Shown here in pieces: positions 28,540-34,986 of a DNA stretch of 64,000 bases. The stretch is from Clostridia bacterium (GTDB taxonomy: Bacteria; Bacillota; Clostridia; UMGS1883). The notes beneath the pieces are model-generated. The model was not told the DNA's origin and did not search any database. It worked only from the letters and a program-made list of their open reading frames with translations. The first letter of the stretch is position 1. Each line of letters begins with the position of its first letter. The stretch spans positions 102,531 to 166,530 of the forward strand of contig JAZNSQ010000019.1 in NCBI GenBank assembly GCA_045591265.1, in the 5' to 3' direction. The translations under genes and the position numbers were made by a program.

Positions 28540-31500
28540 ATGGCAAGAAATAAGAAAACTATGGATGGTAACACCGCCGCAGCATATGTCTCATATGCGT
28601 TTACTGACGTTGCAGCCATCTATCCCATTACACCTTCCTCAAACATGGCAGAGGTAACGGACGAATGGGCAGCAAAAGGTAAGAAGAATATGTTCGGCAG
28701 AACAGTAAAGATTGCTGAAATGCAGTCAGAGGGCGGTGCTGCAGGTGCAGTTCACGGTTCTCTTACAGCAGGTGCGCTTACAACTACTTACACAGCGAGC
28801 CAGGGTCTCTTACTTATGATTCCGAATATGTACAAAATAGCAGGTGAGCTTTTGCCGTCAGTTATTAACGTATCTGCACGTGCGCTTGCATCTCATGCGC
28901 TTTCTATCTTCGGTGACCATCAGGACGTATATGCATGCCGTCAGACAGGTTATGCTATGCTTTGTTCTGTAAACCCGCAGGAAGCTATGGACCTCGGTGC
29001 AGTTGCTCATCTTACAACAATTAAATCAAGAGTTCCGTTCCTTCATTTCTTTGATGGTTTCAGAACTTCTCATGAATATCAGAAGGTTGAATGCTGGGAT
29101 GACGAACAGCTTAAAAAGCTCGTTGATATGGATGCTGTTGAAGCATTCCGCCGTCGCAGTCTTAACCCCGAGCATCCCGCTCAGCGCGGTACTGCACAGA
29201 ACCCTGACGTTTTCTTCCAGGCAAAAGAAGCAAACAACAAGTTCTACGATGCAGTTCCCGACCTTTGCCAGGAATATATGGACAAGGTTAACAAGGAAAT
29301 CGGTACAGATTACAAGCTCTTTAACTACTACGGTGCTGCAGATGCAGAGCATGTAATAGTTGCAATGGGCAGTGCCTGCGATACAATCCAGGAAACTGTT
29401 GACTACCTTGTAAAGAATGGTGCTAAGGTTGGTCTTATCAAGGTTAGACTTTACAGACCTTTCAGCGCAAAACATCTTATCGAAGCTATCCCTGCTTCAG
29501 TTAAGAAAATCAGCGTTCTTGACAGAACAAAAGAATGCGGTTCAATCGGTGAGCCTCTTTACCTTGACGTTGTGGCTGCTCTTCGCGACAGCAAGTTTAA
29601 GGATGTAGAAATCTTTGGCGGTCGCTATGGTCTTGGTTCAAAGGATACAACTCCTGCACAGATTATCGCAGTTTACAATAATAATGATAAGAAGAGATTT
29701 ACAGTGGGCATCAATGATGATGTTACATTTACATCTCTTGAAATTACAGAAAATCCCGACACAACTCCTGAAGGAATTACAAGCTGTAAGTTCTGGGGTC
29801 TTGGTGCTGACGGTACTGTTGGTGCTAACAAGAACTCTGTTAAGATTATCGGTGACCACACTGATATGAACGTACAGGCTTACTTTGACTATGACTCAAA
29901 GAAGTCAGGCGGTCTTACAGTATCTCACCTTCGTTTCGGTAATGCTAAAATCACAAGCACATACCTTATCAATAAGGCTGACTTCGTTGCTTGCCACAAG
30001 GCTTCATATATCAGAAAATATGATATGGTTAGCGACGTTAAGCCCGGCGGTGTATTCCTTCTTAACTGCCCCTGGACAAAGGCTGAAGAATTTGAAGCTC
30101 ACATCCCCGGTCAGGTTAAGCGCTACATCGCAGAAAACAACATCCAGTTCTATGTAATTGACGGTGTTGCTATCGGTAAGGAAATCGGTCTTGGAAACAG
30201 AATTAACACTGTTCTTCAGAGTGCATTTTTCAAGCTTGCAAACATTATCCCTGCTGAAGATGCAATTCGCTACATGAAGGATGCAGCTACAGCTTCATAC
30301 TCAAAGAAGGGTGAAGCAATCGTTAAGATGAACCATGATGCTATCGATATGGGTGCAGAAAAGGTTGTTAAGGTTGACGTTCCTGCTTCCTGGAAGGATG
30401 CAAAGGATGAAGACCTTACTTCAAAGGTTGACGGAAGCGGTAAGCTTGTTGATTACATCAATAACATTCTTAACCCCATCAACTCTTTTGCAGGCATGAA
30501 GCTCCCCGTATCAGCATTCGTTCCTTACGCTGATGGTGAAGTTCCGCTTGGTTCTTCAGCATTTGAAAAGAGAGGAATTGCAATTGACGTTCCTGAATGG
30601 AGAAGCGAAAACTGTATCCAGTGTAACTTCTGTTCTTACGTTTGTCCTCACGCTTGTATCCGTCCTGTAGTTCTTACAGAGGAAGAAGCAAAGAATGCGC
30701 CTGAAGGCATCAAGTATATCAATATGACTGGTCTTAACGGACTTTACTTTGCAATGGCAGTATCTGTGCTTGACTGTACAGGTTGCGGTTCTTGCGCAAA
30801 CGTATGTCCCGGTAAGAAGGGCGAGAAGGCTCTCTTGATGCAGCCTCTCGAAACTCAGGAAGCTCAGCAGGCAGTATTTAACTACGGCACAAAGCTTCCC
30901 TCAAAGCCTGAAGTTCTTGAGAAATTTAAGGAAACAACAGTTAAGGGCAGCCAGTTCAAGCAGCCTCTCCTTGAATTCTCTGGCGCTTGCGCAGGCTGTG
31001 GCGAAACACCTTATGCAAAACTCGTAACTCAGCTCTATGGCGATAAGATGTATATTGCAAACGCAACAGGTTGTTCTTCAATCTGGGGTGGTAGCTGTCC
31101 GTCAACTCCTTATACAACAAACGAAAAGGGCGAAGGTCCTGCTTGGGCTAACTCACTCTTTGAAGATAACGCAGAATACGGCTATGGTATGTATCTTGCA
31201 CAGAACACTCTTCGTGAAGACCTTGTAAGCAAGGTAGAAGCAGTAAGCGAAAAGGCAAATGACGCAGATAAGGCAGTAATCGCTAAATACCTTGAAACAA
31301 AAGAAGATGTAAACGCTAACAAGGTTGCAACTGCAGAGCTTGTTGAAGTTCTTGCTAAAATGAACACACCTGAAGCTGCACAAATCCTTAAGGATAAAGA
31401 ATACCTTTCAAAGAAATCCGTTTGGATTCTTGGTGGTGACGGTTGGGCATACGATATCGGCTACGGCGGTCTTGACCACGTGCTTGCAAGCGGTGACGAT

Positions 31501-32058
31501 GTAAACATCCTTGTATTCGATACAGAGGTTTACTCAAACACAGGTGGTCAGTCATCTAAATCTACTCCTACAGGTGCTATTGCGAAGTTCGCAGCAGCAG
31601 GTAAGGAAGTTAAGAAGAAAGACCTTGCAGCTATCGCTATGAGCTACGGTTATGTATACGTTGCACAGGTTGCGCAGGGTGCTGATTACAACCAGTGTAT
31701 GAAAGCATTTGTTGAAGCAGGCACATACAATGGTCCTTCAATCGTTATTGCATACGCTCCGTGTATCAACCACGGTATCAAAGGTGGTATGAGCATCGCT
31801 CAGACAGAAGAAAAGAGAGCTGTTCAGGCTGGTTACTGGCATCTCTTCCGCTTCGACCCCAGAAGAGCAGAAGAAGGACTTAATCCCTTCCAGCTTGACT
31901 CTAAAGAGCCGACAGAAAGCTATGAAGAGTTCCTTATGAACGAAGTTCGTTACAATTCTCTTGCTCGCAGTAATCCTGACAGAGCAAAGGCACTCTTTGA
32001 AAAAGCAGCACAGACTGCAAAAGCTAAATATGAGCATCTTGTAGAGCTTGCAAAATAA
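28540..32058 (+). CDS. nifJ: Pyruvate:ferredoxin (flavodoxin) oxidoreductase
   Basis: YPITPS, SEGGAAG, two 4Fe-4S motifs (CIQCNFC, CTGCGSC), GACAGCGE, GDGW, YSNTGGQ. Confidence 0.97.
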   Translation: MARNKKTMDGNTAAAYVSYAFTDVAAIYPITPSSNMAEVTDEWAAKGKKNMFGRTVKIAEMQSEGGAAGAVHGSLTAGALTTTYTASQGLLLMIPNMYKIAGELLPSVINVSARALASHALSIFGDHQDVYACRQTGYAMLCSVNPQEAMDLGAVAHLTTIKSRVPFLHFFDGFRTSHEYQKVECWDDEQLKKLVDMDAVEAFRRRSLNPEHPAQRGTAQNPDVFFQAKEANNKFYDAVPDLCQEYMDKVNKEIGTDYKLFNYYGAADAEHVIVAMGSACDTIQETVDYLVKNGAKVGLIKVRLYRPFSAKHLIEAIPASVKKISVLDRTKECGSIGEPLYLDVVAALRDSKFKDVEIFGGRYGLGSKDTTPAQIIAVYNNNDKKRFTVGINDDVTFTSLEITENPDTTPEGITSCKFWGLGADGTVGANKNSVKIIGDHTDMNVQAYFDYDSKKSGGLTVSHLRFGNAKITSTYLINKADFVACHKASYIRKYDMVSDVKPGGVFLLNCPWTKAEEFEAHIPGQVKRYIAENNIQFYVIDGVAIGKEIGLGNRINTVLQSAFFKLANIIPAEDAIRYMKDAATASYSKKGEAIVKMNHDAIDMGAEKVVKVDVPASWKDAKDEDLTSKVDGSGKLVDYINNILNPINSFAGMKLPVSAFVPYADGEVPLGSSAFEKRGIAIDVPEWRSENCIQCNFCSYVCPHACIRPVVLTEEEAKNAPEGIKYINMTGLNGLYFAMAVSVLDCTGCGSCANVCPGKKGEKALLMQPLETQEAQQAVFNYGTKLPSKPEVLEKFKETTVKGSQFKQPLLEFSGACAGCGETPYAKLVTQLYGDKMYIANATGCSSIWGGSCPSTPYTTNEKGEGPAWANSLFEDNAEYGYGMYLAQNTLREDLVSKVEAVSEKANDADKAVIAKYLETKEDVNANKVATAELVEVLAKMNTPEAAQILKDKEYLSKKSVWILGGDGWAYDIGYGGLDHVLASGDDVNILVFDTEVYSNTGGQSSKSTPTGAIAKFAAAGKEVKKKDLAAIAMSYGYVYVAQVAQGADYNQCMKAFVEAGTYNGPSIVIAYAPCINHGIKGGMSIAQTEEKRAVQAGYWHLFRFDPRRAEEGLNPFQLDSKEPTESYEEFLMNEVRYNSLARSNPDRAKALFEKAAQTAKAKYEHLVELAK

Positions 32059-32067
32059 TAGTTAACT

Positions 32068-32098
32068 AAAAACACCGCAGATTCTGCGGTGTTTTTTT
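32068..32098 (+). terminator. Intrinsic terminator after nifJ
   Basis: AAAAACACCGCAG/CTGCGGTGTTTTTTT. Confidence 0.8.
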
Positions 32099-32197
32099 GT
32101 TTTATAAAATATACAAGTGAAAATCATTGGCAACTCCTGAAATATTTTTATGTTTGTGGTAGAATAATAACATAATTAGAGAAAGGAAGTTGTTCAA

Positions 32198-33040
32198 ATG
32201 TTTAAAGCAATAACCCAGGATTTAATTGAAAATTTTAGAAATTATCTAATTGACGAAGAAAAAGCGTCTGCTACACTGGAAAAGTACATGCGCGATATCA
32301 AGGCTTTTTATGAGTGGATCGGTGAGACTGAAATTGACAAGCGTAAGGTGCTTGATTACAAGGAATACTTAACATGTAAATTTGCTCCGGCATCGGTTAA
32401 CTCGATTTTATCTTCTCTTAACAGTTTTTTTTCATATAATAACTGGCATGAGTTGAAGGTTAAAATACTTAAAATACAAAAGCAGATTTTTGCTCAAAAC
32501 GACAGGATTCTTTCAAAATCAGAGTATGAAAGATTGCTTGACTCTGCAAAAGAAAAAAGCAACCAAAGACTGTATCTGTTGATGCAGACTATATGTGCAA
32601 GCGGAATACGTGTATCAGAGCTACAGTATATAACAGTTGAAGCCATAATGCAGAGAAAGGCAACTATTAATTGCAAAGGCAAAATGAGGGTTGTGATATT
32701 ACCCAAAGATCTTTGTAAAGTTCTTTTAGAATATGCGAAAAAACAAAAAATAGCAGGTGGTTCCATTTTTGTTACCAAAAAAGGAAAGCCACTTGATAGA
32801 AGCACTATATGGAAAATGATGAAATCCCTTTGTGAAAGTGCGGGAGTTTCTGAAAAGAAAGTGTTTCCGCATAATTTAAGACATCTTTTTGCACGCACCT
32901 TTTATACCTTACAAAAGGACATCGTAAGACTTGCAGATATATTAGGCCATTCGAGCGTAAACACCACGCGTATATATACAATGGAAAGCGGTGAAGTTCA
33001 CCGCCGGCAAATTCAAAAATTAGGACTTTTAAGAATATAA
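32198..33040 (+). CDS. Tyrosine recombinase (Xer-like, probable invertase)
   Basis: 280 aa with complete catalytic set: GIRVSEL (R), KGK (K), HNLRH (HxxR), LGH, TRIY (Y). Confidence 0.93.
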   Translation: MFKAITQDLIENFRNYLIDEEKASATLEKYMRDIKAFYEWIGETEIDKRKVLDYKEYLTCKFAPASVNSILSSLNSFFSYNNWHELKVKILKIQKQIFAQNDRILSKSEYERLLDSAKEKSNQRLYLLMQTICASGIRVSELQYITVEAIMQRKATINCKGKMRVVILPKDLCKVLLEYAKKQKIAGGSIFVTKKGKPLDRSTIWKMMKSLCESAGVSEKKVFPHNLRHLFARTFYTLQKDIVRLADILGHSSVNTTRIYTMESGEVHRRQIQKLGLLRI

Positions 33041-33050
33041 AATAAATCCC

Positions 33051-33068
33051 ACATAATCGAAATTATGT
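33051..33068 (+). repeat. Left dif-like recombination site (IR-L) ACATAA-TCGAAA-TTATGT
   Basis: Exact reverse complement of 33314-33331; embedded in perfect palindrome 33044-33075. Confidence 0.85.
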
Positions 33069-33107
33069 GGGATTTTTATTTCCTGATACAGTATTAATAG
33101 CGTGGAT

Positions 33108-33136
33108 ATTATATCATCCGCAAAGGAGCTTGTCAA
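33108..33136 (-). promoter_or_regulatory. Perfect sigmaA promoter with extended -10 inside invertible segment
   Basis: minus strand TTGACA-agctcctttgcggaTGa-TATAAT (17-bp spacer), A-rich UP-like region upstream. Confidence 0.85.
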
Positions 33137-33175
33137 TGATTTTTAAGTTTTTTTTTGAATTTTGTTACTTTTCAC

Positions 33176-33250
33176 AAAAAAATACATAGCCAAACAGACC
33201 AGTTTTATAAAATGAACAAAAAACCGGTCTATAAGCTATGCAATTTTTTT
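33176..33250 (-). terminator. Long interrupted hairpin with U-tract inside invertible segment
   Basis: CATAGC/GCTATG and AGACC.GTTTT/AAAAC.GGTCT stems; two A-C mismatches become G-U on minus strand; A7/T7 flanks. Confidence 0.5.
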
Positions 33251-33313
33251 AAAAAGATATGTGTATGCCATGGGTAATAGTTCCTTTTGATGTCTGATTC
33301 ATTATGTCTTGCA

Positions 33314-33331
33314 ACATAATTTCGATTATGT
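33314..33331 (-). repeat. Right dif-like recombination site (IR-R) ACATAA-TTTCGA-TTATGT
   Basis: Reverse complement of 33051-33068; embedded in near-perfect palindrome 33305-33340. Confidence 0.85.
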
Positions 33332-33361
33332 TGTAAGACAATTTTTTAAGAACTCTTGTAA

Positions 33362-33499
33362 TCAGCAATACATAAAAAGCTATTTATATTATATTTAACT
33401 AATGTGACTGTAATGCCGTACATAAGAGGGAAGGGTATCAACAAGGCAGATATGGAATTAGTAGAATTAATGCGCGTAATTGGAAGGTCAGGTAGGTAA
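33362..33499 (+). pseudogene. Possible GNAT acetyltransferase remnant
   Basis: Frame truncated by an upstream stop reads YLTNVTVMPYIRGKGINKADME, resembling GNAT motif A. Confidence 0.3.
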
Positions 33500-33502
33500 A
33501 TA

Positions 33503-33781
33503 ATGACTACTGAAAAGCAGATAAGAATTTTATTATGGTTGTTCGTTGTGATATGCGTCATAGCTGTACTTATAATGAAGTTTATCAAATCGTTATATTT
33601 CCCATTTGTTATGGAACGTGATTTTTTGCGTATGGAAATAGGTAGAAATCGCGGAAGAGAGAAAAGAAGGTGGGAACGAGAACTCAAATGGTTTTATATG
33701 TCTCATATTCCAATTATAGGAACTTTTCTTGCTTGGGAAAGCAAGAAAAGGTATAACCGAAAAAAGCGAAGAAAAATATAA
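33503..33781 (+). CDS. Small hypothetical membrane protein (N-terminal TM, basic C-terminus)
   Basis: 92 aa ORF, AGGT RBS-like, hydrophobic residues ~9-26. Confidence 0.65.
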   Translation: MTTEKQIRILLWLFVVICVIAVLIMKFIKSLYFPFVMERDFLRMEIGRNRGREKRRWERELKWFYMSHIPIIGTFLAWESKKRYNRKKRRKI

Positions 33782-33947: not shown

Positions 33948-34130
33948 ATGAATAAAAAGAATGATAATAAAAATTCCCCTTGCCCAAATTGTAAAACGGG
34001 GATGGAGAGCTATATTATTGACCCTGGGTCTTGCACGTGCCCGTATCTTTGCTGCCTCAAGGAAAATGAATGTGCCTACTACGTTCCTATAAGCAAGGAA
34101 AAGAACGACAAATTTTCTCCTATTATATAG
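33948..34130 (+). CDS. Small Cys-rich hypothetical protein
   Basis: 60 aa, GAGGTG RBS, CPNC...CTCPYLCC.....C; followed by terminator. Confidence 0.6.
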   Translation: MNKKNDNKNSPCPNCKTGMESYIIDPGSCTCPYLCCLKENECAYYVPISKEKNDKFSPII

Positions 34131-34132
34131 TT

Positions 34133-34182
34133 AAAAAACATCGCGGGAATTTGGGATGATACCCTTCCTGCGGTGTTTTTTT
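34133..34182. terminator. Bidirectional terminator closing the islet
   Basis: AAAAAACATCGCGGGAA/TTCCTGCGGTGTTTTTTT. Confidence 0.65.
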
Positions 34183-34627
34183 ACACTGATATAATATTTA
34201 ACTTTTTTCTTTTGGCGTGTAAAAGCGTTTTGTCTGCGCCTGTTAGGTGGTTTTTTACGTAGCATATAATAAAGTTTGAGGTTTCGACCATATACTCGTT
34301 GCATTTAATTATGAAAAGTCGTTTTGGGGTGCTTTGGGGGATTGGTGCGACGATAATTTCGTCAAAGGCATTTTCGTAAAAATCTTTGTCTGTGTTAATT
34401 TCGCTCGTAAGATAGGGGATAACAAGGATGAGCTTTACGGGGTATTTCTTTTTAAGATTCCTTATCGCGCTTGCACTTAAGCGGTCAAATGCGCCGTAAT
34501 TTCCAACGCGAAATTCGGTGACATTTTCATTTAGTATCAGGTTTTCCGCATTTTTTATTATAGACGAAAAAATCTCACCATCGTCATATATATCACTGTG
34601 ACCTGCAAAACAACAAACTTTTTTCAA
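34181..34627 (-). CDS. SLOG-superfamily (DUF1273/YspA-like) protein
   Basis: CCFAGH, G.YG.FD, LVIPY, N.YMV..S...ICYV, GA..T...A; TTG start after GAGGTG. Confidence 0.72.
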   Translation of the reverse strand: MKKVCCFAGHSDIYDDGEIFSSIIKNAENLILNENVTEFRVGNYGAFDRLSASAIRNLKKKYPVKLILVIPYLTSEINTDKDFYENAFDEIIVAPIPQSTPKRLFIIKCNEYMVETSNFIICYVKNHLTGADKTLLHAKRKKLNIISV

Positions 34628-34758
34628 AATATACACCTCTTTTGTGTGTATTATAACACATAATAATATTAAATACAAACAAATTGTTATTAATACATAA
34701 CAATTTGTTTCTGCATATGCAGAATTTGTTAGGCTATAATGCTTATGAGGTGTTTTTT

Positions 34759-34986
34759 ATGAATCCAAAAAACTTCGATATATGGCTTGGAATAGGGCTT
34801 AATATACTTCACTATAGAAAAGAGCAGGGTATGACACAGATGCAACTTGCAGAAAAAGCTGGAATAAGTAATGCTTTTATGCAAAGGATTGAAACTGCAG
34901 CATCTTCTTGCACGCTTGACACGCTTATAGATATTGCAGATGCGCTTAAAATTCCGCTAAAGAAATTATTTGAATTTAAAGATTAA
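34759..34986 (+). CDS. XRE-family HTH transcriptional regulator
   Basis: IG.NI..YRKE.GMTQ.QLAEKAGIS....RIE. Confidence 0.88.
   Translation: MNPKNFDIWLGIGLNILHYRKEQGMTQMQLAEKAGISNAFMQRIETAASSCTLDTLIDIADALKIPLKKLFEFKD

Follow-up and report, generated by a model that had tools for sequence, protein, structure and literature searches.

The 64,000-nt stretch of Clostridia bacterium contig JAZNSQ010000019.1 analysed in the current study (the window; contig positions 102,531 to 166,530) carries a gene for a tyrosine recombinase that is followed by two inverted copies of an 18-bp sequence, with a strong predicted promoter lying between them. This locus is interpreted, with a probability of about two in three, as an invertible promoter switch of the tyrosine recombinase type, in which the crossover sites form the tips of hairpins that are present in one orientation only. 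In the following, OFF denotes the state in which the promoter points back toward the recombinase gene, and ON the state in which it points away from it, toward the genes downstream of the switch (the cargo).

The left recombination site (nt 33044–33075, both strands) is a palindrome with a perfect 14-bp stem and the loop CGAA, preceded by an A-rich flank and followed by the T-rich sequence TTTTTATTT. The right site with its T-run (nt 33305–33347, plus strand) consists of a palindrome (nt 33305–33340) with a 16-bp stem, a single G.T pair (G33311/T33334) and the loop TTCG, directly followed by ATTTTTT (nt 33341–33347). Both structures, with these stems, loops and T-run, had been recognised in a preliminary description of this DNA and were recovered here at the same places. 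Common to the two sites is a perfect inverted repeat of 18 bp (nt 33051–33068 and 33314–33331), with 245 nt between the copies. The 4-nt centre of this core is CGAA on the left (nt 33058–33061) and reversed, TTCG, on the right, and only from this asymmetric centre can the orientation of each copy be read. The window has these two copies of the 18-mer only, with up to 3 mismatches allowed (0.17 matches expected by chance), and no further copy with up to 2 mismatches is found in the 1.96-Mb genome, so the recombinase has no second target there that shares the core.

The predicted RNA folds of the left site reach -17.3 kcal/mol on the plus strand (z = -4.55) and -18.7 kcal/mol on the minus strand (z = -4.84), those of the right site -19.8 kcal/mol (plus; z = -7.31) and -15.1 kcal/mol (minus; z = -4.19), and among 200 dinucleotide shuffles none was as stable in any of the four cases. 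By a consensus scan, both strands of the left site qualify as terminator-like, whereas at the right site this applies to the plus strand alone. When the segment was flipped in silico between the site centres and the sites were refolded, the resulting hybrid sites retained 7-bp core stems only, with energies of -5.9 (plus strand) and -5.6 kcal/mol (minus strand) at the left site and of -4.9 and -7.7 kcal/mol, respectively, at the right. This agrees with two earlier proposals, that strand exchange gives hybrid sites with stems of about 7 bp and that inversion would remove both hairpin locks; the latter holds in silico for the window. Perfect stems of at least 12 bp are common in this genome (514 hits, nested loop sizes being counted separately), so the size of the hairpins is in itself ordinary, and their likeness to the normal terminators of the genome favours a terminator function. 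What is unusual about the sites is their shared core, the adjoining recombinase gene and their behaviour across the family.

The invertible segment between the cores (nt 33069–33313) contains on the minus strand (nt 33108–33136) a predicted consensus sigma-70 promoter, with TTGACA, a 17-nt spacer that includes TG, and TATAAT (12/12 hexamer matches). As this promoter would fire leftward, toward the 3' end of the recombinase gene, the assembled state is OFF for the rightward genes.

The recombinase gene (nt 32198–33040, plus strand) is intact and ends 3 nt ahead of the left hairpin. Its product, an Xer-like tyrosine recombinase of 280 aa and the presumed invertase, has N-terminal SAM-like domains and a catalytic domain matching PF00589 (E = 3.3e-28). 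XerA gives the best NCBIfam match, with 152.7 bits where 220 are required, while the scores for XerD (136.4; cut-off 329.6) and XerC (120.1; cut-off 335.15) fall further short. The nearest solved structure is that of XerA (PDB 5hxy, E = 1.9e-22), in an alignment that spans the HxLRH and GH...Y motifs. There is no other close copy in the genome, the next match showing 28% identity. A role in Xer chromosome-dimer resolution (XerC/XerD/XerA acting at dif) was rejected because every curated Xer cut-off is missed, and that of an integron integrase acting on folded attC hairpins because the model score is 61.3 bits against a cut-off of 265. Upstream of the gene lies a weak promoter candidate (nt 32137–32165, plus strand; CTGAAA, 17-nt spacer, TAGAAT, with TG before the second hexamer), called by consensus match only (9/12 hexamer matches).

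Orientation and hairpin pairing in related loci

Close homologs of the recombinase are present in 40 of 61 sampled relatives, the genome of the window being counted. Among representative genomes 118 relatives of the recombinase were found, of which the best 80 were kept; almost all are labelled as uncultured Clostridia from animal guts. From 110 loci fetched, removal of 13 duplicates left 97, of which 52 have two sites, 32 three, nine one, three none and one four. A set of 82 loci was used for the comparisons below, from which the nine one-site and three no-site loci were left out, together with the four-site locus L082, L105 (spacers not exact inverted complements) and L008 (third site distant and degenerate). 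In five of the nine one-site loci the contig ends at most 153 nt past the recombinase stop, and two of the three no-site loci likewise end there. Contig ends of this kind, i.e. at the switch, occur in L023, L039, L040, L061, L068, L095 and L103; assemblies would be expected to break in this way if the populations sampled contained the two orientations side by side.

The conserved half-site comprises about 9 bp (C, C or A, then ACATAAT) around the 4-nt centre. The centre itself is of 15 types in the 82 loci, none of them palindromic, and in 51 of the 52 two-site loci one spacer is the exact inverted complement of the other. A centre that varies between loci and remains inverted-complementary between sites is what would be expected of the region of strand exchange. 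The promoter is retained in all 82 loci, with 10–12 of 12 hexamer matches and, in 76, the TG element. Its -10 hexamer lies 27–39 nt (median 38) from the core that it faces, and a state defined by promoter direction is therefore independent of the arms of the sites.

Promoter direction divides the set into 42 OFF and 40 ON loci, with no sign of a strong switching bias. In L003 and L004 the segment is inverted relative to the window (77–78% identity over 284 nt, aligning on the minus strand), and the flanks are collinear on the plus strand. Nearly identical loci were found in different states (L092 vs L104, L009 vs L063, and L094/L096 vs L099), and on the recombinase tree at least 24 changes of orientation are needed, compared with a mean of 27.4 (sd 2.3) for shuffled labels, 32 of 300 shuffles giving 24 or fewer. 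Inversion among the relatives of the window locus is thus real. Since orientation has flipped many times, and ON-state sites are without long hairpins, palindromy cannot be a requirement for recombination.

A third site, a form that does not occur in the window, is present in 32 of the 97 loci (L002, L007, L009, L010, L012, L044, L046–L048, L063, L067 and others). It lies 32–34 bp from another site, with 14–16 bp between the cores. Loci differ in the side on which the small segment so defined is found and in the orientation of the promoter segment, and all four states of this mini-shufflon were encountered. In the state that has the small segment at the right end and the promoter OFF, a 9-bp hairpin is enclosed between the two halves of the terminator.

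Each of the 82 loci was evaluated in both states, one natural and the other obtained by flipping in silico, so that in the comparison of OFF with ON every locus is its own control. On the plus strand the median folding energy of the right site is -22.2 kcal/mol in OFF and -10.1 kcal/mol in ON. The OFF form is the more stable in 75 loci, by at least 5 kcal/mol in 62, and the ON form is never so by 5 kcal/mol. A strict terminator call was made by explicit extension of the arms, and required a stem of at least 11 bp (G.U allowed, not more than one mismatch) and at least 6 T in the next 8 nt. By this rule the right site is a predicted plus-strand terminator in 64/82 loci in OFF as against 5/82 in ON (other thresholds give the same picture), with 6/82 and 4/82, respectively, on the minus strand. 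Restricted to natural states, the call is made in 30 of 42 OFF genomes and in 1 of 40 ON genomes. The earlier suggestion that the right hairpin blocks read-through in OFF therefore finds predicted counterparts, hairpin and T-run together, in most of the family. Split terminators of this type are seen in 50 of the 56 loci with the usual TetR-like cargo (see below) and in 14 of the 26 others, some of which have little downstream DNA.

The two arms of the right site differ in sequence from locus to locus and yet remain complementary, with strong covariation. In 35 natural OFF right sites 86.2% of the cells are paired, against 30–45.5% when the partner columns are slid, and the covariation score is 0.421 compared with 0.138 in shuffles (reached by 0/500). 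Ten pairs show changes on both sides, with up to six pair types at a single position. The question raised earlier, whether homologs keep their palindromic arms through compensatory changes, is thereby clearly answered in the affirmative for the right site. Among 74 distinct arm pairs, Watson-Crick cells number 505/666 in the OFF pairing and 250/666 in the ON pairing, and the arms still match in ON genomes, although the partner is then found at the left site, at a distance of about 260 bp. The remaining cells contain more G.U than A.C in the OFF pairing (50 vs 24) and similar numbers in the ON pairing, which serves as control (73 vs 71). This excess fits selection on a plus-strand RNA helix. 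The right site is accordingly read as a putative intrinsic terminator specific to OFF, with its halves on either side of the crossover point.

Across the family the left site takes the form of a core hairpin of 9–10 bp with a minus-strand T-run that faces the OFF promoter (79/82 in OFF). It is more stable in OFF in 72–73 of the 82 loci, and most of its extension consists of an A-tract that pairs with a T-tract.

Proposed mechanism and alternative explanations

The boundary of the invertible segment divides each hairpin into an inner and an outer half, and crossover within the 18-bp core would swap the inner halves. In OFF, the leftward transcript from the promoter would meet the left hairpin and its minus-strand T-run about 25 nt past the start. 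This would keep antisense transcription out of the recombinase gene and limit the product to a short RNA of about 60 nt. Rightward transcription of the recombinase gene would be halted at the left hairpin, in the window, and again at the right hairpin with its T-run, leaving the cargo silent. After inversion both long stems would collapse to about 7 bp, and the promoter would face right, some 30 nt ahead of a right site that would no longer be an obstacle, allowing its transcript and read-through from the recombinase gene to enter the cargo. In the genome of the window the proteins so switched would be those of 92 and 60 aa, and in most relatives a TetR-like regulator and a small protein. We infer from this layout that cargo expression is switched by inversion.

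Several observations weigh against this mechanism. Termination at the hairpins is predicted from sequence alone. The left hairpin had been proposed to stop both the antisense promoter transcript and the recombinase message. The former part stands as far as the minus-strand feature goes, although under the loose rule used this is called almost equally in both states (76/82 ON vs 79/82 OFF). The latter part does not extend to the family, as plus-strand terminator features at the left site are rare (7/82 by the strict rule, the window included, and 22/82 by the loosest), so that in most relatives the OFF recombinase transcript would run on to the right terminator; in the window, the predicted features are such that it can stop at both hairpins. 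Nor does compensatory change extend convincingly to the left site, where the extension covaries weakly (0.104 vs 0.082 in shuffles, reached by 16/500). At the right site the two states are of about equal stability in 14/82 loci, most of which have other cargo or no T-run, L024 holds a 16-bp hairpin with a T-run in both states, and the OFF terminator call is missing in 18/82 loci, many with different cargo. The loci are related, and counts out of 82 therefore overstate their independence. An independent-pairs test on the tree, which is underpowered, gave 7 supported pairs, with about 4 in the expected direction and 0.1 in the other (median p 0.125). Quasi-palindrome correction during replication could also yield part of the arm matching without selection.

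It also counts against the interpretation that both orientations were seen only among relatives and not for the window strain itself. In four DNA runs (Logan contigs) no contig spans the window locus, and the contigs break at both sites. The loose ends after nt 33068 (X4) and before nt 33314 (X2) continue with the arms of the other state, but they stand on contigs of about 94% identity and so derive from relatives, not from the window strain. That the strain still flips is our inference. Two short contigs (X3) join the left site to the right one (33070 to 33301 and 33072 to 33310), skipping 230–237 nt; the sides of these joints are 20–23 nt only, and they may be a repeat artefact.

An explanation at the level of DNA would be that the arms mainly tune recombination. 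It is a principle known from lox66/lox71 that the combination of half-site arms can make one state a poorer substrate and thereby bias switching. The arm tables directly give such a layout, the OFF sites being A/A and B/B and both ON sites A/B, and the half-site types do differ beside the core, left outer arms ending in CC in at least 90% of loci and right arms mostly in CA. The RNA hairpins would then be incidental. Beyond about 9–10 bp, however, the right arms are unconserved between loci and yet covary, with six pair types at single positions, which is not the pattern expected from protein recognition of a B-type arm. The T-run of the right hairpin is on the plus strand (64/82 vs 6/82 on the minus strand), G.U exceeds A.C, and assemblies in the ratio of 42 OFF to 40 ON reveal no strong bias. 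As a replacement for terminator function this explanation is unlikely, but the two are mutually compatible. The hairpins might instead be RNA 3'-end or stability elements and not insulators. In OFF, the recombinase mRNA and the short transcript from the promoter would owe stable and well-defined ends to them, with orientation setting the level of recombinase and hence the rate of switching. The left site is without strict plus-strand terminator features in 75/82 loci, where the OFF recombinase transcript would run to the right hairpin, and there is a precedent in fimE, whose mRNA length and stability depend on orientation (PMC2784873, from the part of the paper dealing with it). A hairpin with a U-run is primarily a terminator, and this explanation, which overlaps largely with the invertible terminator switch, is judged decidedly unlikely as a separate one.

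The possibility that the switch is a fossil in the window genome, where the hairpins would simply serve as fixed terminators of the ordinary kind, following the recombinase gene and preceding the small genes, is very unlikely. It would fit the loss of the TetR cargo from this genome, the four runs in which contigs break at the sites and the two orientations are not seen for the window strain, and the ordinary size of the hairpins in this genome, but the intact recombinase reading frame (280 aa), the perfect 18-bp cores and the 12/12 promoter speak against it. Long palindromes can become homogenised without selection, and the pairing of the arms might on that basis be a functionless mutational by-product, arising by template-switch correction of quasi-palindromes in the prevailing state of a lineage. 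The left extension, which covaries little above shuffles, would be consistent with this. The pairing, however, always fits the state with the promoter toward the recombinase, even in the 40 ON genomes, where the partner arm is about 260 bp off; in addition, the T-run is strand-specific, G.U prevails over A.C and the feature is present in 50/56 loci with TetR cargo. An origin of this kind is considered exceedingly improbable.

Returning to the invertible terminator switch, a wider proposal can be built upon it, which is offered as a tentative possibility. It would see in these loci a widespread family of gut Clostridia switches, in which a single crossover re-aims a consensus promoter, dismantles a terminator whose complementary halves are kept by selection (about 260 bp apart in ON), and turns a short recombinase message into a polycistronic one that includes a TetR-like regulator. 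Further elements may be an abundant OFF RNA of about 60 nt, with its end at the left hairpin, and control of the direction and rate of switching by the arrangement of the half-sites. Such a switch would amount to a phase-variable regulon with insulation and feedback.

Descriptions of invertible promoters usually treat them as simple devices with two states, and to our knowledge their leakiness and their interference with a neighbouring recombinase gene are rarely explained. The design proposed here would be a compact answer, as recombination sites that form the tips of terminators existing only in the silent state would leave OFF insulated in both directions and ON unobstructed. It would also provide a clear example of pairing kept by selection although, in half of the genomes, the two halves of the sequence lie apart, and the split-terminator layout is a ready design idea for recombinase-based genetic circuits.

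Cargo and neighbouring genes

In 57 of 81 loci the gene next to the right site is the usual cargo gene of the family, whose product of about 187 aa carries a TetR-type N-terminal domain (PF00440, E = 7.2e-06). This gene (nt 2754–3323 in L002, for example) starts about 88 nt past the right core. It is usually followed by a gene for a small protein of 80–100 aa, a homolog of that encoded at nt 33503–33781 of the window; the small cargo proteins have no family match. A cargo of this type would imply a regulator that is phase-variable together with its regulon, and hence the presence of such regulons in uncultured Clostridia of animal guts. Neither the window nor the rest of its genome contains the TetR-like gene, which is also missing from L004, L006 and L011; the window locus has lost its TetR cargo.

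In the window a leader of 155 nt (nt 33348–33502, plus strand) separates the right site from the first cargo gene; in relatives this place is usually occupied by the TetR-like gene. No Rfam family reached its gathering score between nt 31900 and 34400, a region that includes this leader. The first cargo gene (nt 33503–33781, plus strand) specifies a protein of 92 aa, hydrophobic at its N-terminus and basic in its tail, which has no Pfam or NCBIfam match and no usable Protein Atlas hit; homologs (cluster c2) are located downstream of the switch in 36 of 81 loci. The second (nt 33948–34130, plus strand) encodes a cysteine-rich, zinc-ribbon-like protein of 60 aa, with a weak match to a zinc-ribbon family that is below the cut-off, and a homolog of it is also found downstream of the switch in L085. 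A hairpin with 20-nt arms (85% complementary) and a T-run (nt 34130–34184, plus strand) probably marks the end of the cargo operon.

The surroundings of the module differ between genomes. Only 1 of the 97 loci, that of the window, has a pyruvate:ferredoxin oxidoreductase gene (nt 28540–32058) upstream of the recombinase, so the module occurs in differing genomic contexts and may be mobile or often relocated. The terminator after this gene (nt 32068–32096) and that after the cargo (nt 34165–34184) share a 13-nt stretch. Recombinase, switch and cargo are thus bracketed by similar terminator halves, which could be due to chance or be a trace of insertion. Farther downstream, a perfect 14-bp palindrome with a 6-nt centre (nt 34677–34710) lies between a divergent pair of genes, one YpsA-like (nt 34181–34678, minus strand) and one of the HTH_3 type (nt 34684–34986, plus strand), and looks like a candidate operator for the HTH_3 repressor. 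A YpsA/SLOG-like protein is encoded directly after the switch in three distant loci (L025, L028 and L071); in the window a weak homolog (nt 34181–34678) is on the opposite strand, about 850 nt past the right site.

Comparison with known switches

Three of the features by which fimS-type invertons are recognised are present in the window, namely a tyrosine recombinase at the locus, inverted repeats with an asymmetric centre and a predicted internal promoter, and a further one, the occurrence of both orientations, was seen among the relatives. In lox66/lox71 and in synthetic invertible terminators, the exchange of arms gives sites with state-dependent properties, and engineered switches flip terminators. 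Such engineered systems flip whole terminators or alter the affinity for a protein, and are not known to split a terminator hairpin across the crossover. In the open-access literature and bioRxiv no description was found of terminators centred on recombination sites or of a switch linked to a TetR gene, which is not proof of their absence.

Natural switches are compared here on the basis of parts of the papers cited. Like fimS of Escherichia coli (PMC2784873, PMC9993118), the family has its promoter in an invertible segment of about 300 bp, and an upstream tyrosine recombinase gene that is transcribed into the switch. The fimE gene is followed by a Rho-dependent terminator that acts in an orientation-dependent manner, and the length and stability of the recombinase mRNA vary with orientation (PMC2784873); similarly, the fate of the 3' end of the recombinase transcript would depend on orientation in the loci examined here. 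The fim terminator, however, is Rho-dependent and lies within the switch, whereas the features compared here are those of intrinsic terminators (hairpin plus T-run) only. The fim repeats are not described as terminator stems in the discussion of PMC2784873, as far as the portion consulted goes, and both FimB and FimE act there, while a single recombinase gene adjoins the sites here. The flagellar flgB switch of Clostridioides difficile (PMC7446863, PMC5386303) is alike in that inversion controls expression after initiation, by termination in one orientation. According to the parts of these two papers used, termination there is mediated by Rho factor and not by a hairpin built from recombination sites.

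The closest likeness in the formation of a terminator is to cwpV of C. difficile (Emerson et al. 2009, PMC2784873), for which a stem-loop with poly-U was predicted in the OFF orientation only, having a 9-bp stem and lying at the junction of the left repeat with the invertible region. Its authors considered the mechanism unique to their knowledge, and the promoter is outside the switch. In both systems inversion would make or break an intrinsic terminator at the junction of repeat and segment, here on the plus strand in 64/82 loci in OFF vs 5/82 in ON, and truncated OFF transcripts, a mark of the cwpV type, would be expected. The two differ in that the cwpV promoter lies outside and upstream, the terminator being the sole control, whereas a strong predicted promoter is inside the segment here. 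A single junction hairpin, on a 9-bp stem, is found at one of the cwpV repeats, whereas the hairpins described here are centred on the crossover cores and have stems of 14–21 bp. The window, moreover, has a core-centred hairpin at each end, and its recombinase is encoded directly upstream, reading into the switch. The interpretation given here would thus extend cwpV, the sole inversion-made intrinsic terminator described, to a promoter-carrying switch and to a large family. An internal promoter like that of fimS is joined in this family to predicted junction terminators of the cwpV type, which are centred on the crossover cores, in the window one at each end.

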